Shown: in pieces, positions 7,126 to 18,776 of the stretch | Layout: each line of letters begins with the position of its first letter | Numbering within the stretch: the stretch's first letter is position 1 | Origin: an uncultured virus (IMG/VR IMGVR_UViG_3300030708_001148) | Taxonomy: Duplodnaviria > Heunggongvirae > Uroviricota > Caudoviricetes | Virus record (IMG/VR): IMGVR_UViG_3300030708_001148 | Strand: one strand, 5' to 3' | DNA length: 20,000 nucleotides | Made by a program: the position numbers and the translations under genes | Notes under the pieces: generated by a model | Told to the model about the DNA's origin: nothing | Databases searched by the model: none | Seen by the model: only the letters and a program-made list of their open reading frames with translations

Positions 7126-9516
7126 TTAATCACCTCTTCTGTTTCCTATCTTATCTATTAGTGATTTTAAGGTTTTGAGAGATTTATTCAATGTTAATAA
7201 CAAAGTCTGATTCTTCTGTTGTAATGTTACTCTCCCTCTAGTTTTTGTTCTCTGTTGGGTAAATCTAGAAGTAGAACCTATGTCCCTTTGTAGTTCACCA
7301 GAAGGTATTGCCTTTACTACGGCAATGTCCTGTTTGATTTGCTTGTCTATTTTTATTGCTACTACTCTTCCAGTCTGTTCAAAGTCTGCTTCGTATGGTG
7401 CAGTTTCCAAGAGATGCTTGAATCTGTTCCAGAATCGTTGTTTGATTATCTTTATCTTTCTAACATATTGTTCTGGTGCTTCATCTGGATAATCTTGTAT
7501 GTAATTTTGGAATACTTCATCCGTAATGTAGGCTGTATCAGACATGTCAACAAGTCTAGGAGTAGTCTCATCCTCCGCATTATCAGATTCTTGACCCTCT
7601 TCCATTATGTTGTCTAATTCTCTAGAATTAGACCTATAGTCACCTTCTAATTCACTAGGATTGATATCAGTAACTTGACGTTGTTCTTCCTCTAATTCCT
7701 CATCTATATCTGAGTCAAATACTTGTGAATACTGATAATCAGAAGCCTCTTCCAATCTTTCCTCTATTTCTCCCGGCTCTGTCTCATCTACAAAATTTTC
7801 ATCTATCATGTATTCGTAGAATTTTATTGATGGTTTATCGAAATTAACCGATTCGTTATCACTAGTTATATCCTCAAGAAGTTCTCTATTCTTATTGGCT
7901 TCTACCTTTTCTTGGTCTTTTATTTGTTTACTCCTAACCTTAGTTTTTGAAGTAGTTCCTTGTGTGAAAAGATTCTTGAAAGTTAATGGGTCAGTCAAAT
8001 TCTTAGTTACGTTTCCAAGACTCATTTCATAATTCAAAGAGTACTCAAATATCAGCACTCCTAAGTCTAATGTCATGTCTTTGGGTACTAGATATTCTTG
8101 TATCTCATAGTGATGTTCTGGTTTACTCAAAATATAACCGGACTCATCCCTTTCTCCAAAATTACCAGTTGTCTTTCTAATTGTATTTGAGATGAAAGCC
8201 TCCTTGAAATTTTCAGATTGTTTCAATGAGTTTAGATAATTAATAATTTTTTTCAAGTCATCGTAACTAGAATCTGGTTCATCAGTTGGCAAATCATATG
8301 TTTCCCTTTCCGCAAATAGTCCAGTTGTTCTTATTTCACTTGATGCCTTATCTCCCATAATAGTTAATGAGTGTGTTCTAGGGTCACTAACAGTAAAATC
8401 TGTTGCCTTTGCACCACGATAACTTTCTTTTCCATCCTGTCCCTTCTTTGGGTTTTGCACATAGTAAACATCAAAGAAACCAGATTCAGGGTCTTCCATT
8501 CTCTGAGTTTCATAAGCCATTAATTCCTCTCTTTTGGTTTCTATTTTTCTTTTAGGAGTTCCATCTTCATTTTTTTCATTTGACGCTACATACTGTACTC
8601 TGGGTTTTCCTTCTATTTTGGTTCTTCTAATTCTTCTTGTCTTTTCATTTGTCTCTTTATCTGTAACTGTAGTTGACTTTAAATCCTTGAGTTTACCAAA
8701 ACCATATTTCTCAAACATCTTGTTCCAATACTCGTATGAATTAACAGTAACAACCATAGTAGGAGCATTACTGTTACCTTTTCTAGTCACACTAATGGAT
8801 TGTCTGAGAATATCCTCATCTATGAGAGGACTTTCAGTCATAAAGAAGTTCATCATTTCTACTTGTCTTGACTCTTCGTCTTCCCTGCTCAATGCTGGTT
8901 TCTCTACTTGAGGTCCATAGGGTAGTCTCATTGTTCCTCTATCATAACTATAGCCAACTAATTCGCTTCTGTTTTCAATCAGTTCCTTTATGGACATATT
9001 GTCTAATGAGGGCACACCAGAATCAGATGATGTTATATTCATTTTTGACCTTAGATAGAACTTATCTCCATCTTCTACGTTAATCTGAAACTGTTGTTTT
9101 CTTTGCTCAAACTCTTCTCCATCTCGCACGACTTTAAATTTCTTGAGTAAGACATTCTCTCCACCATCATCAGAATAAAGTGTCATATTTTCTATCTTAT
9201 TTACAAAATTCAATAAAGCCCTACGCCAAGCATCATTGGAAAACTTGTATTTTTCCGTATTCATTTCTGTAAACCTATGGTTAAAGGTAATTCCTCGCAT
9301 TGATTTCTTGGCCTTTTTCATGGTGTTTGTTGGGTTTTGAGCCAAATCATGTAGAATGTATCCTACCATTAACTCAAAAATTCTGTTTCTTGTGTTTCCC
9401 TCTAGTAGTTCTAAGGCACTACGGTCCAATGCTCTTTCTGGAAGTGCTATTACTTCTTTGAGGGCATTAGGTATGGTGTTACCTTCCTCATCTACTAGTG
9501 GTATTCTGATGTCCAT
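7126..9516 (-). CDS. Large acidic hypothetical protein (796 aa)
   Basis: Long ORF coupled to both neighbours; very Glu/Asp-rich region in the C-terminal third, basic C-terminus; no recognised motif. Confidence 0.8.
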   Translation of the reverse strand: MDIRIPLVDEEGNTIPNALKEVIALPERALDRSALELLEGNTRNRIFELMVGYILHDLAQNPTNTMKKAKKSMRGITFNHRFTEMNTEKYKFSNDAWRRALLNFVNKIENMTLYSDDGGENVLLKKFKVVRDGEEFEQRKQQFQINVEDGDKFYLRSKMNITSSDSGVPSLDNMSIKELIENRSELVGYSYDRGTMRLPYGPQVEKPALSREDEESRQVEMMNFFMTESPLIDEDILRQSISVTRKGNSNAPTMVVTVNSYEYWNKMFEKYGFGKLKDLKSTTVTDKETNEKTRRIRRTKIEGKPRVQYVASNEKNEDGTPKRKIETKREELMAYETQRMEDPESGFFDVYYVQNPKKGQDGKESYRGAKATDFTVSDPRTHSLTIMGDKASSEIRTTGLFAERETYDLPTDEPDSSYDDLKKIINYLNSLKQSENFKEAFISNTIRKTTGNFGERDESGYILSKPEHHYEIQEYLVPKDMTLDLGVLIFEYSLNYEMSLGNVTKNLTDPLTFKNLFTQGTTSKTKVRSKQIKDQEKVEANKNRELLEDITSDNESVNFDKPSIKFYEYMIDENFVDETEPGEIEERLEEASDYQYSQVFDSDIDEELEEEQRQVTDINPSELEGDYRSNSRELDNIMEEGQESDNAEDETTPRLVDMSDTAYITDEVFQNYIQDYPDEAPEQYVRKIKIIKQRFWNRFKHLLETAPYEADFEQTGRVVAIKIDKQIKQDIAVVKAIPSGELQRDIGSTSRFTQQRTKTRGRVTLQQKNQTLLLTLNKSLKTLKSLIDKIGNRRGD

Positions 9517-9517
9517 A

Positions 9518-10210
9518 TTATGCCAACCACTTTGCCCATGCGATACCCTTGCTCATTGCAGATGCTAGACCAAGACCGCTAGACGGTGGTGTGTAGGACA
9601 TTTGACCTGTTTGTGGGTCTATCCAGTATGGATTATTCATGTTGTCATAACCCGCAGGTGGTATAGGATATCCAGATTGATTGTTGAAGGCCATATGTTG
9701 TTGTTGCATCATTGCATTTGCTTGAACAGAAGCGTTACCCCCAGTTATCATTGATGGGTCTACTCCACTAGGATTAGCAACAGGAGGCTGACTACTTCCT
9801 TGTCCTTGTGAAGCAAAACCCTGAGATTCTAGATATTGTGCTTTAGCCATTCTTCTTTGCATTATTACTTCTGAGTTAATTGCAGAAGCAAGAAGTGTCT
9901 GTAGGTCTAGATTGATGTTAGCCTCAGTTATTGAACCCATAGCGGCAACTGCATCTGGAGACATCGTTATGTCACCATTGTTATTTGTTACAAAGGCCAT
10001 TTGCGGTAGCATTTGACCCAATACTTTCTCTACTGTATCAGTCATTAACTGTGCTAATGCGGCTAGAAACGCTTCTCCATGATACTGGAAGAAGTCCTCT
10101 ACGTGGTTCTCTTGCAAGGTCAACAGATTGTTCATTGTTTTGAACTGAGCCTGTTGGTTAGACTGCATTGTATTCATTAAAGTGCTATTACTAGTGCCAA
10201 ATAATCCCAT
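9518..10210 (-). CDS. Gln/Asn/Met-rich protein with WW-like motif and amphipathic termini (~230 aa)
   Basis: Probable ATG at 10210 (MGLFGTSNS); helical N-half, low-complexity Q/N/S/P region, 'YPIPPAGYDNMNNPYWIDPQTGQMSYTPP', C-terminal 'GLGLASAMSKGIAWAKWLA'. Confidence 0.75.
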   Translation of the reverse strand: MGLFGTSNSTLMNTMQSNQQAQFKTMNNLLTLQENHVEDFFQYHGEAFLAALAQLMTDTVEKVLGQMLPQMAFVTNNNGDITMSPDAVAAMGSITEANINLDLQTLLASAINSEVIMQRRMAKAQYLESQGFASQGQGSSQPPVANPSGVDPSMITGGNASVQANAMMQQQHMAFNNQSGYPIPPAGYDNMNNPYWIDPQTGQMSYTPPSSGLGLASAMSKGIAWAKWLA

Positions 10211-10211
10211 T

Positions 10212-10889
10212 TTACTCACTTCCCTCTTCTTGTTCCTCTTCTATTTTTGCGCCCTCAGTCAATAAAACTTTCATTCTATCTCCTACCGCATTATGTTCTA
10301 TGATTAATCTGAACAACTCAGCCTCTTTAGTTTCTTCTGTTCCAGATGGAGGTTTAATTGTCCAACCCAATGCCGAAAGAGATTGTATGTCTGATTCTTT
10401 CAGACTCTTTAGTGGCCCTGCTGACAATGGGTTTAGAGTCTGCATACTAGGAGCCTTTGGAATGTATGCGCTGAAAGACAGACCATGTTCCTCTGCTAGT
10501 ATCTGTTGTTCCAGCATTTCGTACTGCCTGTGTATGGCCGCATGTTTATCACAATAAGTACCTCTCATGGGATACCCCTTGCGTACCTTGTGTAGTGGCA
10601 AAGGGGGTCTTAGATTATCACTAGCATCCCATACTTTGTGAGTACCGCACACTACACATCTATCTTTGATGTTGTATGCAAACTTGTATGGTATTTTCAG
10701 AAATGTCTTGTTTTCTGGTTTCAGTACCTTTACTATTTCTTTCAACTGTTTCTTTGGCTTTACGCTCTTGTACTCATATGTGGTAATCGGTCCAGAAGAC
10801 CTTGCGGCATCTAGTTTATTTAGAAACACGGATGAAGCCGTTGGTGTTTCTGCCCCTATTAATGAGGGCATCTGGTATTGCATTGACAT
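10212..10889 (-). CDS. Putative zinc-finger protein (225 aa)
   Basis: 'RCVVCGTH' and 'TYCDKH' give a CxxC...CxxH ligand set, followed by helical/coiled-coil segments and an acidic tail. Confidence 0.7.
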   Translation of the reverse strand: MSMQYQMPSLIGAETPTASSVFLNKLDAARSSGPITTYEYKSVKPKKQLKEIVKVLKPENKTFLKIPYKFAYNIKDRCVVCGTHKVWDASDNLRPPLPLHKVRKGYPMRGTYCDKHAAIHRQYEMLEQQILAEEHGLSFSAYIPKAPSMQTLNPLSAGPLKSLKESDIQSLSALGWTIKPPSGTEETKEAELFRLIIEHNAVGDRMKVLLTEGAKIEEEQEEGSE

Positions 10890-10901: not shown

Positions 10902-11576
10902 TCAGTAGTCCTTTATCATTGTTAGGACACCTCTGTAAACCATCTCTGAGTCTGATTTAGCACTAACTATGTATTTGAAACAAGGTATTCCCTTGTCGTT
11001 TAACCTTTGCATTCCATCTCTAAATGCAGAAAAAATTGGGTGTTTCTCTATTGGCCCATTGTGGTCATACCTGTCTTTCCATAAATCGTATTTGTTAGCC
11101 CATATTCCTACTGCTAATGGATAATCAGATTCTCTTTTCTTCTTTCTCTTACCATTGGGTAGACTCCATTCAGAAGCACATATGGTATCAACGAGAAACG
11201 TCCAACACAACTGCTGTTCTATGTCATAGTGTTTGTTCATGTGCCTATCGTCTATCATGAAAATGATGTATTTGACTCTACGACTTCTCATATCGTGTAT
11301 CCAATCGTTCCAATATGTCACTTGCCCACCGATATCAGCACTTTTTACAGTATGAGCATCACCATCTAGTTTGACATATTTCCTAGTTGCTCTACCCTTG
11401 CCGACTGTCCTTTCTCTAATATCAGGAACCTCACCTCTTGTTCTGAGTTGGTGATTCATTGTGGTTTTACCTGCTTGGGTAGCACCGTATATTCCAAAGT
11501 TAATCGCATGTACCCTTTGATATATTTTGTTTAGTCCCTCGACTATCAGAATAGCAAACCCTGCCATCACTGACAA
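10902..11576 (-). CDS. Arf/Sar1-like small GTPase (Ras superfamily, TRAFAC; 224 aa)
   Basis: All five G motifs in order: G1 GATQAGKTT, G2 RTVG, G3 DIGGQ, beta4 YIIFMIDD, G4 WANKYD, G5 VSAK; TTG start after GTGGTGA RBS (alternative ATG at 11567); hydrophobic N-terminal helix. Confidence 0.9.
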   Translation of the reverse strand: MSVMAGFAILIVEGLNKIYQRVHAINFGIYGATQAGKTTMNHQLRTRGEVPDIRERTVGKGRATRKYVKLDGDAHTVKSADIGGQVTYWNDWIHDMRSRRVKYIIFMIDDRHMNKHYDIEQQLCWTFLVDTICASEWSLPNGKRKKKRESDYPLAVGIWANKYDLWKDRYDHNGPIEKHPIFSAFRDGMQRLNDKGIPCFKYIVSAKSDSEMVYRGVLTMIKDY

Positions 11577-11580
11577 GGTA

Positions 11581-11805
11581 TCACCACAGATGATTCCAGA
11601 AATCTACTACTCCATTCCAAGCAATTGATAGAGTGTTTATTCCTGCTATAGCAAATGCTTGTCCCAATATAAAACTAGTAAGCGATGCTACTCCACCCCA
11701 AAACCAGAATCTAGCCCTTAGAAACCAGATATCAGCAGAGTGCGCTCTTTGTAAGTCATATGCGAGCGTAGACTCATCCATTCCGAATAGTATTTCGCTG
11801 ACCAT
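11581..11805 (-). CDS. Small membrane protein (74 aa)
   Basis: GTGAGG RBS; hydrophobic 'FWFWGGVASLTSFILGQAFAIAGI' and Trp-rich amphipathic C-terminus 'SIAWNGVVDFWNHLW'. Confidence 0.75.
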   Translation of the reverse strand: MVSEILFGMDESTLAYDLQRAHSADIWFLRARFWFWGGVASLTSFILGQAFAIAGINTLSIAWNGVVDFWNHLW

Positions 11806-11819
11806 ACATATTCCTCACA

Positions 11820-12230
11820 CTACTGTTCTACTGTCAAGAATGTCGGGTTAACACCTTGTGGTTCAGGTTCTAGGTTTGGTAGATTGCTGTCACCGTATAT
11901 GTTTGACATAGGATTTGCTTGTTGGAATGACCTGATTGAATCCCTGACTCTCTTTCGGTTATCCTCTTCCCTAGCCATTCTCTGCCAATATGCGTCAATT
12001 CTTCTTTGAAGTAGCCATTCCTCTATGAAATCGTTGAGGAACAAATCAAAGAAGGCTTTGATACACATTATTCCTCCTACCGTCACTACTCCAAAGAGAA
12101 GTGCATGTTCTAGGTGTCCATAAGGAAATGAAATTCCGTATTGGGCATAGAAGAAGATATTCATTCCACTAATCGCACCAACAAATAGTATCGTCATTAC
12201 TAGTCTTGTGTCTGTATCTATACTTGGCAT
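11820..12230 (-). CDS. Two-pass membrane protein with charged helical tail (~136 aa)
   Basis: Probable ATG at 12230 (MPSIDTDT); TM1 'LVMTILFVGAISGMNIFFYA', TM2 'ALLFGVVTVGGIMCIKAFF', then charged helix 'EEWLLQRRIDAYWQRMAREEDNRKRVRDSIR'. Confidence 0.75.
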   Translation of the reverse strand: MPSIDTDTRLVMTILFVGAISGMNIFFYAQYGISFPYGHLEHALLFGVVTVGGIMCIKAFFDLFLNDFIEEWLLQRRIDAYWQRMAREEDNRKRVRDSIRSFQQANPMSNIYGDSNLPNLEPEPQGVNPTFLTVEQ

Positions 12231-12235
12231 ATTAC

Positions 12236-12538
12236 TCACTCAAAGGTTATGGAGACTTGGCCTGTTCCTGCAATCTGAACGTATAGACCACTTCCCGCTA
12301 TTGCCCCATGTGTGTCAATCTCAAAGTTAAATCCTTCTCCAGTAGAATGATTTCCTTTCGTTTGTATTCTGAACATTTCCACTTTACCAGTAGTTGTCGA
12401 ATTGCTAGAATCCCATACTTTAACACTAAATGTACTAGTACTACAATCTGCTATTGTAGTAGCACTTATGCTCATTAGTTTGTGCTTAGATGTACATACC
12501 ACTGTGCTACCAGTAAGGATTCCACTTGTTGCTACCAT
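12236..12538 (-). CDS. Small beta-rich virion-associated protein (100 aa)
   Basis: GGAGG RBS; Thr/Ser/Gly-rich strands ending 'GLYVQIAGTGQVSITFE', typical of small jelly-roll-like proteins near capsid genes. Function inferred. Confidence 0.6.
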   Translation of the reverse strand: MVATSGILTGSTVVCTSKHKLMSISATTIADCSTSTFSVKVWDSSNSTTTGKVEMFRIQTKGNHSTGEGFNFEIDTHGAIAGSGLYVQIAGTGQVSITFE

Positions 12539-12540
12539 GC

Positions 12541-13011
12541 CTATGCCTCCACTAGTCTCTCAATTAATTCTGCTTTTTTACCTTCCGTAGAAAGTCCTCT
12601 TTCCTCAAGTAGAGGTTTTAGTTGTTTTATGGTTAGTTTATCCAGTTTTGGAGGAAGAGGTTCTAACTTTTCTTCCACCTCTGGTTCTGGTTCTGGTATT
12701 GCTTCCTCCTTTGGTTTGAGTTTCAATGTTGGTAGTTTCCTCTTAGCAGGATTTCCACCTAGAAGTTTGTCTACAACTTCATGATAGTTCTTCAAACCAA
12801 ACCACTTTACTAGTGATTTCTGTGTGGACTTTGGTGCATTTACAATGTATTCCTTGTCGGATGCATCAAAAGTGGCTACCAAATCCTTGTGTCCGAAGAC
12901 CATATCTATTACCAACTTTGCTGGCATTTCTATTGTCTCGTCACGCCTCCACTTGTATTTTCCTCGTCCTAACTCCTTCGTTCCTATTCCTATATACTTC
13001 ACTTTCGCCAT
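12541..13011 (-). CDS. SAP-domain protein (~156 aa)
   Basis: Probable ATG at 13011 (MAKVKYIG) after GGTGA RBS; Pro/Glu linker then 'LDKLTIKQLKPLLEERGLSTEGKKAELIERL', a canonical SAP motif. Confidence 0.8.
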   Translation of the reverse strand: MAKVKYIGIGTKELGRGKYKWRRDETIEMPAKLVIDMVFGHKDLVATFDASDKEYIVNAPKSTQKSLVKWFGLKNYHEVVDKLLGGNPAKRKLPTLKLKPKEEAIPEPEPEVEEKLEPLPPKLDKLTIKQLKPLLEERGLSTEGKKAELIERLVEA

Positions 13012-13032
13012 AGTTTCACCTGTCGTTAGGGG

Positions 13033-13074
13033 GTAGTAACCCCCTTCCTGTTGCTCTAGGAAGAGGGTCACTAC
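13033..13074 (-). other. 17-bp RNA stem-loop in the intergenic region after the capsid genes
   Basis: 13033-13049 pairs with 13058-13074; the two + strand A/C mismatches are G-U wobbles on the - strand; 8-nt loop AGAGCAAC. Confidence 0.7.
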
Positions 13075-16208: not shown

Positions 16209-18776
16209 TTATTCTGGAAATGGTAAACTAGCGAATCTATCTTTAGTAATGTCTCTCAATTCCTCATCTCCCTTGTTTGTAAGCATATCCTGCTTCTTTC
16301 CTGTCCATGCCAACCAAGTTCTTTTTTCATTTACAGGTATTACTCTAAAATGCATACGAGTCTTGAATTTATCACCATCTAAACGATACTCATGATACCC
16401 TTCTTTCTGCATTCCAAACTTCAAGTCTCCCTCATCAATTGTAATTCCATCTCCTGTAGTCTTAGCAACTATTGCAGGATACTTACCAGACTTACCAAAC
16501 AGGTCGTAGATATCTGCTGATTTCTCTAATCTAATAGTCCATGCATTTGTGGAGTCGCCCAACTTGATAATGAAATCTAAATTACCATCCTTTCTTTTCT
16601 TTAGAATGAAAGTTCCCTCATCGGTTTCTTCTTTAATTATTATACCCTCATCGGTTTTGAAAGTCATATTCTTACCATTGAAAACTAATCCGTGTTTATC
16701 CTGTTCCTTTAGGAATTCTAACAGTTTACTGTCATTGCTCTCAAATATATCTTCAAATGGCTCCACTAAATGTATCTTAACCCATTCAAGTATTTCATTG
16801 AAATGCATAGGTTTGTTTCCCTTTCTTCTAATGTAATCTATTACTCCAACTCTAAAATCCTCAGTAGCCTTCTCCAGCATTTCATCTAGTTGATTCTTCC
16901 AGAGTTCAAGGTTGTATAGTGCGTTTTTCTCCATCAACTTATCACCTTCAAACCCATATATCGTGTATCCTTCGTAATTAGACTTGAGAATTATTTCTGC
17001 TTCTCCATGTATGTTGTCTGTGATATAGAACGACTTCTTCTCTTCCTTCCTATTTTTGAGTCCACTTCTAACCTTGAATGCCCTCCCTACATCTCTAGAC
17101 AGTTCTGGTAGTTCAGTAACCAATGCTAGTGATTTCTTTGTCTTCTTGGACAATTGCTCTAGTGTCTCTATCTTGTCCGGTAGTTCTACTTCCGGTATCT
17201 CAATAAGTTTCGCTGAATAAAGACTGTAGCCGTCTTTTTTCTTCTTTACCTCATCTACTTTGACCCTGATGATTGAACCTACCTGTACCGACTTCTTTGT
17301 ATTCAGAGCCTTACCTACCACCAGATATTCTTCTCCATCTAAAATAACTGTATTCATTCCCTCTGCATCTTCTTCCATCAATGGCCCTATTCCCATAGTG
17401 TACGAATGCAGATTGTTTCCTGTCTTACTCTTATCTAGAACTATTACATCCAAATCAACGAACTTCTTCCACTTAATCCATTTTGGATTCTTCTTTACTC
17501 CACGATAGTATGTGGATTCTATATCCTTTATCACCACTCCCTCAGAAGCAGGTAGTTCCATTATTGCTCTTGAGTACTCTTCCACTTCATCAATAGAGTC
17601 AGCAATCCTAGTATCCTTCTTGGATGGGAAAGCCAAATCTTCCGAGGAATGTTCTGCATATTGGTAGAAAAGTATGTTGATTCTTTCTCTGAGAGTGTCC
17701 TCTATGATAGATTTGTCATCATGTTTCATTATGTCAAAAACATGCGCTCTCAAATCACCATCGGTTCCTTTCTTGAATACGTGTTTGACTGTATCTGCTC
17801 TATGAAGAGGCTCACCATCCTTGAACAATAATAGTTCTGCATCCAATATGCAATTTTGGAACGCCTTGTTCTTCATTGCCTCGACTTGCTTGGGACATTT
17901 ATCAGTGATATCTTTCTCATTGAAGGAATATATCTTTATCTTGTCCTTTATCTTGTGAATCTGTATTCTCATACCATCATACTTCTCTTGTACGATGAAC
18001 TCTCCACTTAGTCCCTTCAATGATTTCATATCATCAATCTCAAAGATTCTGTACATCGGCTTATTGGGTATTAGGAAACCTAGTTTCTCATCTTCTGATT
18101 TTTCTGCCTTAGCAATGTCCAACTGCACTAGATTCTTCCAGTCCTCTCCACCGTATTTCTCATTGAATAGTTCCTTCAAGTCCCTATACAGAGTCTTGAA
18201 CTTGGATTTTAATCTCTTAGTGTCTTTGTCATCACCATAGTGTTCTGAGATGTACAGTGGAATATCCTTTGGCTCTAAGTCCAAACCCGGAACTCCCATC
18301 GTTATTTCATCGGGTTTGAAACCATGCTTATCCAACAATTTGTCAGGTAGTGTGTTTGAGTGAGAGCGTAATGCATAGTGAATGAAGGAAATGAACAAGG
18401 AATCGTTTTCAAGTAAAGCATCAACTACCTTGTCGTTTCCTATCTGCTTACCAAATGGGTCACTAACCTCATCTGATTTGAAGCGCATTTCTTTAATTGC
18501 CTTGTATAGTTTCTCAGCCTGTACGCTTTCTGGATTCATGGCTTCCTTTTCAAAAGGCAGTTCTTCGTCTATGTACTTCTTTAGTTCCCTTGCGAAATCA
18601 TTCAGAGAATCAAATTGCTTCTGTATTGACTTTACCGTTTCTCTCCACTTACTGCCATACTCAGCAGGGTCTTCCTTTGCGGAAAGATACGAGAATCTAA
18701 CTTTCTCAAAAAAAGTTAGTATACGCTTGGTTAGATGCTTGTCTTTCTTGTCAAACATTAAACCGGAACGTGGCAT
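16209..18776 (-). CDS. lig: Multidomain ATP-dependent DNA ligase (855 aa)
   Basis: Motif I QEKYDGMR, III ILDAEL, IIIa HVFDIM, IV SEGVVIK, V WIKWKK, then OB domain (DLDVIVL...); about 230-aa N-terminal helical extension and about 300-aa C-terminal extension. Confidence 0.9.
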   Translation of the reverse strand: MPRSGLMFDKKDKHLTKRILTFFEKVRFSYLSAKEDPAEYGSKWRETVKSIQKQFDSLNDFARELKKYIDEELPFEKEAMNPESVQAEKLYKAIKEMRFKSDEVSDPFGKQIGNDKVVDALLENDSLFISFIHYALRSHSNTLPDKLLDKHGFKPDEITMGVPGLDLEPKDIPLYISEHYGDDKDTKRLKSKFKTLYRDLKELFNEKYGGEDWKNLVQLDIAKAEKSEDEKLGFLIPNKPMYRIFEIDDMKSLKGLSGEFIVQEKYDGMRIQIHKIKDKIKIYSFNEKDITDKCPKQVEAMKNKAFQNCILDAELLLFKDGEPLHRADTVKHVFKKGTDGDLRAHVFDIMKHDDKSIIEDTLRERINILFYQYAEHSSEDLAFPSKKDTRIADSIDEVEEYSRAIMELPASEGVVIKDIESTYYRGVKKNPKWIKWKKFVDLDVIVLDKSKTGNNLHSYTMGIGPLMEEDAEGMNTVILDGEEYLVVGKALNTKKSVQVGSIIRVKVDEVKKKKDGYSLYSAKLIEIPEVELPDKIETLEQLSKKTKKSLALVTELPELSRDVGRAFKVRSGLKNRKEEKKSFYITDNIHGEAEIILKSNYEGYTIYGFEGDKLMEKNALYNLELWKNQLDEMLEKATEDFRVGVIDYIRRKGNKPMHFNEILEWVKIHLVEPFEDIFESNDSKLLEFLKEQDKHGLVFNGKNMTFKTDEGIIIKEETDEGTFILKKRKDGNLDFIIKLGDSTNAWTIRLEKSADIYDLFGKSGKYPAIVAKTTGDGITIDEGDLKFGMQKEGYHEYRLDGDKFKTRMHFRVIPVNEKRTWLAWTGKKQDMLTNKGDEELRDITKDRFASLPFPE

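Follow-up and report, generated by a model that had tools for sequence, protein, structure and literature searches.

A divergent Ras-like small GTPase beside predicted membrane proteins in a magrovirus-like archaeal tailed virus

On the evidence of its motifs and modelled fold, the protein studied here is a genuine Ras-superfamily small GTPase that forms its own very divergent family and is predicted to act as a guanine-nucleotide switch. Its gene lies in the window, by which we mean the whole 20,000-nt stretch of viral DNA that was analysed (IMG/VR record IMGVR_UViG_3300030708_001148). Judging from gene content, the virus is a magrovirus-like tailed virus of marine archaea. We give a probability of roughly 55% to the reading that the protein is a membrane-associated GTP switch of a distinct family that acts late in infection on the host membrane.

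The GTPase gene and its virus

The open reading frame starts with TTG, with GTG (codon 3) and ATG (codon 4) as alternative starts, and is open through 224 codons; residue i corresponds to the window bases from 11576-3(i-1) downwards. A sequence-only reading of this DNA had listed a leader of about 23 residues and the motifs G1, RTVG, DIGGQ, YIIFMID, WANKYD and SAK, and the minus-strand translation contains all of them where that reading had put them:

10902..11576 (stop codon included), minus strand: small GTPase, 224 aa; ORF and translation
11508..11576, minus strand: N-terminal leader MSVMAGFAILIVEGLNKIYQRVH, residues 1-23; predicted helix at 2-22
11460..11486, minus strand: G1/P-loop GATQAGKTT, residues 31-39; G31, G36 and K37 invariant, T38 and T39 at least 90% conserved (alignment A1, 22 sequences)
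11400..11411, minus strand: candidate G2/switch I RTVG, residues 56-59; R56 and T57 invariant in the core clade
11301..11336, minus strand: G3/switch II DIGGQVTYWNDW, residues 81-92; D81 and G84 invariant, W92 at least 90% conserved (A1)
11322..11336, minus strand: DIGGQ, residues 81-85, part of G3/switch II
11250..11270, minus strand: YIIFMID strand, residues 103-109; from sequence
11133..11150, minus strand: polybasic stretch KRKKKR, residues 143-148, within a roughly 20-residue insert that separates the IFMID strand from G4
11085..11102, minus strand: G4 WANKYD, residues 159-164, guanine-specificity motif; N161 and K162 invariant, D164 at least 90% conserved (A1)
10956..10964, minus strand: G5 SAK, residues 205-207; S205, A206 and K207 invariant in the core clade

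Of 249 unique family sequences, 234 show a G3 motif, and 233 of the 234 G4 motifs found read NKxD. The only part of RTVG conserved family-wide is RT (in clade 2, R60 is invariant and T61 at least 90% conserved), and its threonine is probably the G2 threonine. The insert before G4 adds strands at 136-138 and 144-146 in the AlphaFold2 model, and the 26 residues preceding G4 carry a median net charge of +2 in the protein's own clade and +8 in clade 2.

The same model shows a Ras-like G-domain preceded by a helix at residues 2-22 (pLDDT 81.3, pTM 0.80). Foldseek returned at least 500 small-GTPase matches at E<=0.001, with TM scores (target) of about 0.7 to Rab1, Arl1 and Rab5. The VIA fold matches are headed by Arf6 (Z 17.5 and 17.4; rmsd 3.2 and 173 residues aligned for the 17.5 match), SRbeta (17.3) and Sar1 (16.8), and the range from Z 17.5 to 15 spans Arf6, SRbeta, Sar1, Rag, G-alpha and Rab, the best Rab standing at 15.4. 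With G1 GxxxxGK(S/T), G3 DxxG, G4 NKxD and a modelled G-domain fold, the protein falls within the Ras-like small GTPase superfamily (TRAFAC class). The earlier reading of the gene as a small GTPase is upheld by the intact motifs, the guanine-specific NKxD among them, by the invariant columns and by the predicted fold.

The motif agreement goes well beyond chance. Among 390 candidates from a collection of 5.8 billion proteins, 339 are relatives at E<=0.01, and in IMG/VR a relative is encoded at 325 of 329 pattern matches. The GTPase gene is under strong purifying selection. Pairwise comparison of 14 sequences, with 39 pairs usable, gives a median dN/dS of about 0.055, a value that is only approximate because dS, at about 1.9, is near saturation; the four neighbouring genes give 0.095-0.17. 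PHROGs gave no match for the GTPase, and NCBIfam nothing beyond a sub-threshold 'small_GTP' (19.2 < 42.5). No match was obtained by tblastn of the GTPase against the phage collection, or at E<=0.01 by a core-clade-only profile against PDB sequences. Used as queries, the family member P0162 alone recovered only itself from the large protein collection, and P0157 found nothing among viral contigs.

The residue that follows DxxG varies. Over 234 family sequences it is Gln in 111, Glu in 111, Asp in 7, His in 4 and Ala in 1. The window protein has Gln85, which the sequence-only reading took as a sign of an active enzyme, but Glu is the majority residue in its own clade (99 Glu vs 74 Gln among 173 sequences), which leaves that argument unsupported. 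With both Gln and Glu common at this 'catalytic' G3 position, GTP is probably hydrolysed slowly or with the help of a partner.

Within the phage collection, every match to the capsid protein is an archaeal tailed virus (9 records). The gene set of a complete 101.5-kb relative includes a split PolB, RFC, XPF, a TFIIB ribbon, two ATP-dependent ligases and a terminase, and fits the magrovirus description in the main text of PMC5434244. The capsid matches and this gene content agree with the earlier view that a tailed prokaryotic virus encodes the GTPase, and identify it as archaeal and magrovirus-like. Our literature search found no paper that joins magroviruses with a GTPase. GTP, Arf and Ras terms are absent from the main text of PMC5434244, whose supplementary PDFs may include gene tables naming the protein. 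They are likewise absent from the main texts of PMC10160649, PMC11706807 and PMC8651126, apart from false matches to SAR11 and SAR116, and from the readable supplements of PMC10160649 and PMC11706807.

The mimivirus Rab (PDB 5XC5; fold match Z 15.4) is also a virus-borne Ras-superfamily switch. Giant-virus GTPases are, however, recognisable Rab members in viruses of eukaryotes, whereas the present proteins make up a family of their own in an archaeal tailed virus. Our impression is that this is the first such GTPase in an archaeal virus.

Relationship to Arf, Ras-like and bacterial GTPases

The sequence-only reading had called the protein Arf/Sar1-like, and part of that description stands. The protein resembles Asgard ArfR (GerdArfR1, PDB 8OUN/8OUM), Arf, Arl, Sar1 and SRbeta in its N-terminal helix, GKTT, DxGGQ with a Trp seven residues on, and IFVVD-like strand. 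The switch II signature, DxGG(Q/H) plus this Trp, has the spacing seen in the Arf6 and GerdArfR1 alignments, and the Trp is present in 233 of 234 family sequences. Trp at +7 is not known from Ras, Rab and Rho, and the RasL rows in our alignments agree. Among solved sequences, the whole-family profile matches GerdArfR1 best (42.4 bits, E 5.3e-10). This alignment takes in the N-terminal helix, the GTPase N-terminus pairing with the amphipathic helix of GerdArfR1 (query 13-129 to chain 3-109). GerdArfR1 is also the best match among GTPases for the clade-2 profile (23.7 bits). Pfam Arf (PF00025) matches 13 of 22 family members at E<=0.1. When 12 members were scanned singly, the less-diverged P0162 (57.2 bits, vs 35.0 for Ras), P0179 (32.1) and P0157 (27.2) exceeded its cut-off, and P0076 did so marginally.

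Together with the top VIA folds, Arf6, SRbeta and Sar1, these matches speak for a true Arf-family protein (Arf/Arl/Sar1/SRbeta/ArfR clade) captured by the virus, in which the Arf interswitch toggle would free the helix upon GTP binding. We hold this to be doubtful. The window protein itself scores 16.3 bits against Pfam Arf, below the cut-off of 22.3. The Arf family is defined by an aromatic residue (Trp/Phe) before the G3 Asp and by a P-loop GxDxxGKT; in the window protein Ala80 precedes Asp81 and Thr33 occupies the P-loop Asp site, where the reference Arf/ArfR-type rows read W-D and G-L-D. Compared with ArfR and Arf, the viral family has no conserved G3 Gln, is longer in switch I and in the region preceding beta-2, and has a polybasic insert, some 20 residues long, ahead of G4. 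In hhalign, the viral profile scores higher with Asgard RasL (102.6) than with the Arf groups (76-80), and in five Asgard genomes Rag-like, RasL and Arf-type proteins all appear as best matches.

The phylogenetic comparison that had been proposed was carried out here with Arf, Asgard groups and ArvA as reference sequences. In both trees the family is a separate long branch outside Arf, and no free tree nests it within Arf. SH-aLRT support, from quick searches, is 97 for the viral clade and 100 for the viral, Chloroflexota and bridge sequences together. A sister relationship to Arf is not rejected by the AU constraint test (p 0.54), but RasL (p 0.63) and ArvA (p 0.50) fit equally well. Row L129, a wrongly called ORF whose terminal branch reached 4.43, was left out of the later tree analyses.

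Pfam Roc reaches a maximum of 30.4 bits, for P0162, and always stays under Arf for that protein. Membership in the MglA family was rejected: D81 is invariant, and no neighbouring gene gives a roadblock/MglB Pfam match. MglA has a G3 without the conserved Asp and is coupled to MglB, according to PMC4316618.

Small GTPases of Chloroflexota/Anaerolineae (about 232-243 aa, with a Pfam Arf match) are the nearest relatives of the viral family. They give the best hhalign score of all groups (110.2 over 177 columns), align over nearly their full length and form a joint clade with the viral proteins (SH-aLRT 100%). The two share a long hydrophobic N-terminal leader, GKTT, DxGG(E/Q), the switch II Trp and NKxD. 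Some of these bacterial proteins are named 'GTPase SAR1 family protein' or 'signal recognition particle receptor subunit beta' by their sources. Within our hhalign comparisons, this sister family leans towards Arf (86.9, vs 72.2 for RasL), a further point for Arf membership. The Chloroflexota proteins are without the viral insert, and their genes are chromosomal, on contigs of up to 1.86 Mb. Profiles of the four viral neighbour genes had no match in the bacterial neighbourhoods, where all four are missing. At 12 of 19 loci the Chloroflexota gene has a conserved downstream partner of its own, which has no Pfam match and gives at most 0.5% in hhalign against viral gene +1, viral gene +2, ArvB and ArvC. 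Because the bacterial relatives have different neighbours, the gene cassette lends the proposed function no cross-domain support.

Such proteins had been described as typical of eukaryotes and Asgard archaea, a description that finds no support here, the nearest relatives being bacterial. In its main text the ArfR preprint places ArfR in Asgard archaea and Korarchaeia alone, and the words 'virus' and 'viral' appear nowhere in it. With bacterial proteins as its nearest relatives, the family has a weaker link to the origin of eukaryotic Arf. The expected relevance to the origin and spread of Arf proteins survives in reduced form: there is an Arf-looking lineage in archaeal viruses and Chloroflexota, but it says less than hoped about how Arf proper arose, because the data fit Arf, Ras-like and ArvA placements equally well.

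The leader and the five-gene block

The leader has a hydrophobic first half (MAGFAILIV), more hydrophobic than the classical Arf helix, and an amphipathic second half with L15, I18, Y19 and V22 on one face; Glu13 is invariant in the 26-sequence core alignment. Its best 11-residue hydrophobic moment is 0.69 (residues 11-21), and its Kyte-Doolittle 19-residue maximum, 1.46, lies under the transmembrane threshold of 1.6. The N-terminal amphipathic helix of the sequence-only reading is helical in the model and partly amphipathic. From this hydrophobicity and predicted helicity we infer a membrane role for the leader. The 1.6 threshold is reached by 5 of 78 family members in the protein's own clade and by 10 of 80 in clade 2; because these 15 of 158 pass it and the first half is so hydrophobic, the leader may instead be a permanent, SRbeta-like anchor.

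The GTPase is the central gene of a co-directional, tightly packed block, in the order two-TM protein, one-TM protein, GTPase, Cys/His protein and Q/N-rich protein. Its neighbours are:

11820..12239, minus strand: gene -2, 139 aa, two membrane-helix-like segments; ORF, homologue at 78/80 close loci
11581..11805, minus strand: gene -1, 74 aa, one membrane-helix-like segment; ORF, homologue at 79/80 close loci
10212..10889, minus strand: gene +1, 225-aa Cys/His protein; homologue at 78/80 close loci
9518..10219, minus strand: gene +2, 233-aa Gln/Asn-rich protein; homologue at 71/80 close loci

The order and sizes of the block are the same in 78, 80 and 4 loci of three clades. The GTPase, gene +1 and gene +2 keep their order even between viral clades that are only about 30% identical, with cross-clade hhalign probabilities of 99.9% for the GTPase, 96.7% (E 4.6e-10) for gene +1 and 94.4% (E 9.1e-8) for gene +2, vs at most 34% for mismatched-position controls. 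This repeated co-occurrence is not independent evidence, because all 164 related viral loci represent one broad virus group.

Gene +1 has invariant residues C78, G82, G105, T111 and C113, and H116 is at least 90% conserved (alignment A2). Its model has a pLDDT of 59.7 and is confident in a core spanning roughly residues 40-140; a fold search gave no match (best VIA Z 4.3). Searches of Pfam, PHROG, NCBIfam and PDB sequences returned no match for gene +1, apart from one chance-level PDB row (E 0.62), and none for gene +2. Transmembrane-like segments occur neither in gene +1 of any clade nor in gene +2 of the protein's own clade; in clade 2, gene +2 has one in 26 of 80. A predicted complex of the GTPase with the gene +1 core (36-145), GTP and Mg scored 0.00, with a mark of 0.32, which speaks neither for nor against binding.

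The stop of gene -1 lies 4 bases ahead of the GTPase start. In the protein's own clade, gene -1 has one transmembrane-like segment in 59 of 77 cases; clade 2 has at this position an ORF of the same size (about 81 aa), with one such segment in 55 of 77, and homology between the two was not detected (hhalign 0.9%). Two transmembrane-like segments are found in 64 of 76 cases of gene -2, whose clade-2 counterpart is a positional analogue with weak homology (hhalign 8.5%). Given these cross-clade values, the tie of genes -1 and -2 to the GTPase is positional only. PHROG and NCBIfam returned no match for either gene.

The block is flanked by capsid/protease genes and tail tube/tape-measure genes, on the same strand and with overlapping or near-abutting ORFs. 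Because it sits inside the virion-gene region, it might serve particle assembly: as a chaperone or a checkpoint, the GTPase would serve the completion of heads, their joining to tails or the building of tails, or it would itself be packaged, and the leader would bind virion proteins rather than lipid. This position is kept in the close clade, where a capsid homologue is found at 75 of 80 loci. We nonetheless regard such a role as rather unlikely. None of the five genes matches a PHROG or Pfam virion family, and two of them encode small membrane-type proteins, which would be unusual for a non-enveloped tailed particle. Upstream of the block, clade 2 has genes of other sizes, a hint that the block may move on its own, apart from the capsid gene.

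The layout also recalls arvABC of Haloferax volcanii. In PMC10927574, ArvA is described as a small GTPase whose N-terminus forms an amphipathic helix and whose gene is directly followed by those of two partners; vesicle formation needs ArvA, and knock-out of any of the three genes of ArvA-ArvB-ArvC (OapABC) alters vesicle output at the cell membrane. The presumed hosts, Thermoplasmatota or Poseidoniales, go unmentioned in that paper's text. Both systems pair a GTPase bearing an N-terminal helix with two partners that follow it, one of them Cys-rich; the two membrane proteins are found only in the viral block. If the virus carried a copy or mimic of ArvABC, it could drive or hijack vesicles, for instance for release, as decoys or for spread, and the similar P-loop regions would agree with this. 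In the AU test, a tree joining the viral-plus-bacterial clade with ArvA was not rejected, so distant kinship with ArvA is possible, although both groups sit on long branches and the result may therefore reflect long-branch attraction. Specific homology to the ArvA family was rejected at the sensitivity of hhalign, which gave a score of only 54.0 over 59 columns (the P-loop region), below RasL, Arf and Rag. Homology to ArvB or ArvC was rejected for viral genes +1, +2, -1 and -2, all at no more than 2% probability in hhalign, and genes +1 and +2 have no Pfam match (ArvB is PF09846). We judge an ArvABC mimic to be highly improbable.

A candidate function at the host membrane

In our favoured reading, that of a distinct membrane-associated switch, the N-terminal helix, probably aided by the polybasic insert, would put the GTPase on the cytoplasmic face of the host membrane. 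This placement may be nucleotide-dependent, as in Arf, Sar1 and ArvA. The proteins of genes +1 and +2 would be regulators or effectors of the GTPase. The GTPase and the two small membrane proteins, made along with the late gene products, would act on the host membrane late in infection.

The same membrane-association basis, the helix at 2-22 and its hydrophobic moment, could underlie a membrane-located device for host takeover or exclusion that has nothing to do with release, such as superinfection exclusion or interference with membrane-bound defence or transport. The block lies inside structural, presumably late, genes rather than among early genes, and we consider a device of this kind improbable.

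For the late-acting membrane switch that we favour, the most attractive role would be in the timing or execution of virion release. The egress machinery of archaeal head-tailed viruses is described as completely uncharacterised in a review (PMC10791045). A specific and speculative extension, to which we give only a small chance, is that the five-gene block is this missing release machinery: a GTP-timed switch, brought to the inside of the host membrane by its helix and polybasic loop and controlled by its Cys/His and Q/N-rich partners, would trigger the two membrane proteins to breach or remodel the membrane as infection ends. If that were true, it would represent a lysis or egress system unrelated to the bacterial holin-endolysin, archaeal pyramid or ESCRT routes, at work in viruses that are very abundant in surface ocean water.

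These proteins widen the range of Arf-looking GTPases beyond Asgard archaea and eukaryotes, to a lineage with a putative membrane helix in archaeal viruses and Chloroflexota, and they urge caution in using Arf-type motifs as markers of eukaryotic lineage. The main text of PMC5434244 reports that magroviruses rank with the most abundant surface-ocean viruses. A conserved and strongly selected predicted GTP switch beside putative membrane proteins offers a testable candidate for egress, or for viral action on the host membrane.

The GTPase gene and its putative membrane-facing extensions

The minus strand of the window carries an unbroken series of co-directional genes, and the GTPase gene among them is real. 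When the ORF was translated, the motifs listed by the sequence-only reading and its 23-residue leader were all found in place.

Features of the GTPase gene (motifs and leader read in translation)
10902-11576, minus strand: GTPase ORF, open for 224 codons
11460-11486, minus strand: G1, GATQAGKTT
11400-11411, minus strand: RTVG
11322-11336, minus strand: G3, DIGGQ
11250-11270, minus strand: YIIFMID
11085-11102, minus strand: G4, WANKYD
10956-10964, minus strand: SAK
N-terminal 23 residues, minus strand: GTPase leader

We retrieved 339 relatives at E<=0.01 among 390 candidates from a 5.8-billion-protein collection, many of them encoded on ocean-metagenome contigs as long as about 100 kb. A relative is also encoded by 325 of the 329 IMG/VR pattern matches. 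An alignment of 22 sequences, spanning identities as low as 23%, has G31, G36, K37, D81, G84, N161 and K162, all of them nucleotide-binding, among its invariant columns. Median pairwise dN/dS of the gene is about 0.055, with dS near saturation. As judged from sequence, guanine-nucleotide binding is clearly conserved in the family.

The retained G3 glutamine, previously taken as a sign of activity, was not borne out as such. In the 234 of 249 unique family sequences in which the G3 motif could be located, this position holds Gln and Glu equally often (111 each), with Asp in 7, His in 4 and Ala in 1; within the window's own clade Glu is the more frequent (99 vs 74 for Gln). Canonical Gln-assisted hydrolysis is thus, on these sequences, no constant of the family, and from the variable residue we infer that hydrolysis would be slow or helped by a partner.

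An AlphaFold2 model built from the 22-sequence alignment (pLDDT 81.3, pTM 0.80) places a helix at residues 2-22 ahead of a Ras-like G domain, in which an insert contains two extra short strands. The proposed N-terminal amphipathic helix therefore held up, with a qualification: within the predicted helical leader (residues 1-23) the first half is hydrophobic and only the second is amphipathic (moment 0.69). Glu13 is invariant within the core clade, to which the window belongs. Because leader hydrophobicity stays under the transmembrane threshold in most members (73/78 in the window's own clade and 70/80 in clade 2, a deeply separate viral clade), an in-plane membrane helix fits better than a membrane-spanning anchor, which is also possible. 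Ahead of G4 lies a basic insert, KRKKKR in the window and with a median net charge of +8 in clade 2. Helix and basic loop would together carry the GTPase switch to the host membrane.

A conserved five-gene cassette in the structural block of an archaeal virus

Within the late structural genes of this abundant marine archaeal virus, the GTPase, a conserved guanine-nucleotide-binding switch, lies next to a pair of conserved soluble partners and a pair of small membrane proteins. Across the 80 nearest loci, some of which stop at contig edges, homologues were found for the genes immediately upstream (-1, 79 loci; -2, 78) and downstream (+1, 78; +2, 71). Gene order is identical across three clades, compared at the 78, 80 and 4 loci with a callable GTPase ORF out of 164.

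Genes of the cassette, in order
Gene 1 (-2): 140-240 aa, 1-2 membrane-type segments
Gene 2 (-1): about 74-82 aa, usually one membrane-type segment
Gene 3: GTPase
Gene 4 (+1): about 225-300 aa
Gene 5 (+2): about 210-270 aa

Between-clade profile-profile comparison, with mismatched-position controls at <=34%, gave 99.9% for the GTPase, 96.7% for +1 (E 4.6e-10) and 94.4% for +2 (E 9.1e-8); for the two membrane proteins it reached just 0.9% and 8.5%. In the +1 protein C78, G82, G105, T111 and C113 are invariant and H116 nearly so; it matched no family in Pfam or PDB sequences, and its model matched no fold. The +2 protein is Gln/Asn-rich and likewise had no family match in Pfam or PDB sequences. 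Purifying selection acts on all five genes (dN/dS 0.055-0.17). Of the large genes in the region, the one least conserved lies directly downstream of the cassette: it encodes a very acidic 796-aa protein (7126-9516, minus strand) and has a homologue in 10/80 close loci at a median 29.5% identity; the genes flanking it on either side are conserved.

Among the neighbors in the window are a prohead protease, a capsid protein of HK97 type, one tail-tube protein and one tape-measure-like protein. Rather than acting as a membrane switch, the GTPase could, less probably, in such surroundings be a morphogenesis factor. Capsid matches in the phage collection were to archaeal tailed viruses only (8 Haloarcula virus records and 1 Methanofastidiosa virus). 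A relative in IMG/VR (101,546 bp, CheckV 100% complete, 42.4% GC), whose GTPase is 86% identical to that of the window, encodes a split family-B polymerase, RFC, an XPF/ERCC4 nuclease, a TFIIB-type zinc ribbon, two ATP-dependent ligases, a class II ribonucleotide reductase and a terminase. Its polymerase (L083:14489-17543) consists of two ORFs of 559 and 304 aa with two small ORFs between them. Passages of the magrovirus description (PMC5434244) report genomes of about 100 kb, a near-complete archaeal replisome, one or two ligases, a capsid protein with similarity to halovirus capsids alone and, in group B1, split DNAP genes. The complete relative agrees with these passages, including the split polymerase. 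Because the comparison was made with a published description and not with a named magrovirus genome, we only infer that the virus is magrovirus-like and its host Marine Group II.

Two further genes of the structural block encode DNA-related domains. An 855-aa protein directly upstream of the prohead protease (16209-18776, minus strand) has an ATP-dependent DNA ligase domain mid-protein only (residues about 253-437), and Pfam assigned no domain to its large N- and C-terminal parts; the complete relative carries the same gene plus a second, 519-aa ligase with the conventional three domains. Two genes downstream of the capsid gene, here and in the complete relative, a 176-aa protein (12541-13071, minus strand) ends in a SAP DNA-binding domain (E 1.2e-10), which is unusual amid head genes.

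Relationship to Arf and to a Chloroflexota family

Another rival reading is that the protein is a true Arf. Several traits favor it. The top solved-sequence match of the family profile was 8OUN (42.4 bits, E 5.3e-10), full-length GDP-bound GerdArfR1 from an Asgard archaeon according to passages of the ArfR preprint, and the alignment begins within the N-terminal helix. With a clade 2-only profile, 8OUN came narrowly first among GTPases (23.7 bits; Arl8A 20.1, Rab33B 19.8), below three RecA rows covering only about 20 residues round the P-loop. Across about 48,000 PDB representatives the fold ranking was led by Arf6 (Z 17.5 and 17.4), SRbeta (17.3) and Sar1 (16.8), with the best Rab at 15.4; Foldseek intermixed Rab, Arl and G-alpha chains at similar E-values. 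A Trp seven residues after the G3 Gln position occurs in 233/234 family sequences and in the Arf6 and GerdArfR1 alignments.

The best Pfam matches of the window GTPase also lie on the Arf side (SRPRB 16.8 bits, Arf 16.3 bits) but are sub-threshold. Against membership, the protein stays below the Pfam Arf cut-off, and one core-clade member matched Ras (24.6), Roc (23.7), MMR_HSR1 (23.1) and Arf (22.4) about equally. When the viral profile was run against five Asgard genomes rich in small-GTPase paralogues (dozens apiece), its 21 best matches mixed Rag/Gtr1-like, RasL and Arf-type proteins at 20-33 bits. We assembled references from Asgard and Thermoproteota genomes and added eukaryote-type Arf from bacterial assemblies (a 6.9-kb Rickettsiales MAG contig supplied one, very short contigs two), naming groups by best Pfam family and not by published classification. 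Among these groups the pooled viral profile scored highest in hhalign with RasL (102.6 over 161 columns), a value biased upward since RasL references were chosen as good viral-profile matches; Thermoproteota Arf gave 79.8, eukaryote-type plus Thermoproteota Arf 76.3 and Rag 72.5, and the reference groups scored 93-213 among themselves.

All our trees carry SH-aLRT support from quick searches, and MglA, Rup, Roc, Sar1, SRbeta and labelled ArfR lie outside their sampling. A 78-row tree (LG+C20 PMSF) united all viral clades with three bridge sequences (SH-aLRT 99, stem 1.18) and placed this group in a polytomy shared by Arf, Arf-C, Rag and RasL. Under AU tests, union of this long-branch lineage with Arf (p 0.54) was not rejected, nor was union with RasL (p 0.63). 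Of the proposed Arf/Sar1-like identity, the Arf-like traits (Trp +7, folds, 8OUN) thus stood, while the protein falls below the Pfam Arf cut-off and took no place inside Arf in these trees; Arf membership cannot be shown from the trees, the AU tests or the ArvABC comparison.

An Arf signature pattern also matched contigs of only 320-1666 bp catalogued as bacterial (L187, L216, L205, L235, L238). Two, once translated, encode eukaryote-type Arf (Pfam Arf 230-250 bits), and these matches are probably eukaryotic contamination. On the Rickettsiales MAG contig (L200, 6.9 kb) two Arf genes stand in tandem (262 and 132 bits).

The bridge sequences, retrieved by exhaustive representative search, exceed the Pfam Arf cut-off (P0162, 57.2 bits, with Ras at 35.0; P0179, 32.1; P0157, 27.2). 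Their profile recovered 472 proteins at E<=1; the best 120 of these are mostly 232-243 aa, mostly with a precomputed Pfam Arf match, and those named are Chloroflexota, Anaerolineae or Phototrophicales; some lie on contigs as long as 1.86 Mb. No group scored higher in hhalign with the pooled viral profile than this bacterial family (110.2 over 177 columns), which also led for the core clade alone (100.1 vs 68.5 for RasL). Its own scores (Arf 86.9, RasL 72.2, Rag 62.5, ArvA 26.3) suggest that it inclines modestly to Arf. A 101-row tree joined the bacterial family to P0157, P0162 and the viral family (97) in a single clade (SH-aLRT 100%), which a long branch sets apart from all other groups. ESM Atlas neighbors, ordered as own viral clusters, bacterial G-domain clusters with partial Arf annotation and then Asgard Arf clusters, offer a lead in line with the tree. 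The joint clade on its long branch and the best hhalign partner mark the family as a distinct lineage of the Ras-like superfamily, with Arf-like traits, common to archaeal viruses and Chloroflexota.

None of the viral neighbor genes lies beside the bacterial relatives in 19 loci. Unlike the viral cassette, 12/19 Chloroflexota loci have their own conserved downstream protein, on the same strand as the GTPase and about 203-247 aa long (L403:5846-6493, L411:5706-6344 and 10 other metagenome loci). The 4 of 12 scanned had no Pfam match, and similarity to the viral partners or ArvB/C was not found; it is a possible dedicated partner of the bacterial GTPase.

ArvABC and a proposed membrane role

In Haloferax volcanii, as described in parts of PMC10927574, ArvA, a small GTPase that begins with an amphipathic helix, is needed for extracellular-vesicle formation, and the downstream ArvB (DUF2073) and zinc-ribbon ArvC (DUF2072) also influence vesicle output. 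Since the layout of a GTPase with two downstream genes parallels the viral trio, we tested for homology, using 30 ArvA, 28 ArvB and 13 ArvC from PF09846 (OapB/ArvB) loci. The viral GTPase aligned with ArvA only around the P-loop (54.0 over 59 columns), and the four viral neighbors did not match ArvB or ArvC (hhalign, <=2%), so the cassette was rejected as an ArvABC homologue. The AU test did not reject a union of the viral-plus-bacterial clade with ArvA (p 0.50), both being long branches. ArvABC is the best functional analogue, with no specific homology recognized in these comparisons; an ArvA mimic is a further, unlikely rival to the membrane switch. We found PF09846 in 93/400 Asgard-phylum genomes searched, mostly directly downstream of an ArvA-like GTPase (loci L362-L393). 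Passages of PMC10927574 give ArvA homologues in only 8/183 Asgard genomes, a gap that may reflect a stricter criterion there or newer genomes here.

The magrovirus literature yielded no description of the GTPase: "magrovirus" with "GTPase" returned nothing, and GTPase terms are missing from the main texts of PMC5434244, PMC10160649, PMC11706807 and PMC8651126 and from the searchable supplements of PMC10160649 and PMC11706807. Neither "virus" nor "viral" occurs in the available main text of the ArfR preprint, and phage or virus is unmentioned in available parts of a 2014 survey of prokaryotic small GTPases (PMC4316618).

We favor a membrane switch, at a probability of about 55% for the model as a whole, over the rivals, which also include a role in exclusion or takeover. 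In the membrane-switch model, the +1 and +2 partners would be regulators of the switch or its downstream actors, and the assembly would work on the membrane late during infection. Progeny release, in itself an unlikely specific assignment, would be the most attractive role for the cassette, because the egress machinery of archaeal head-tailed viruses is unknown according to passages of a review (PMC10791045).
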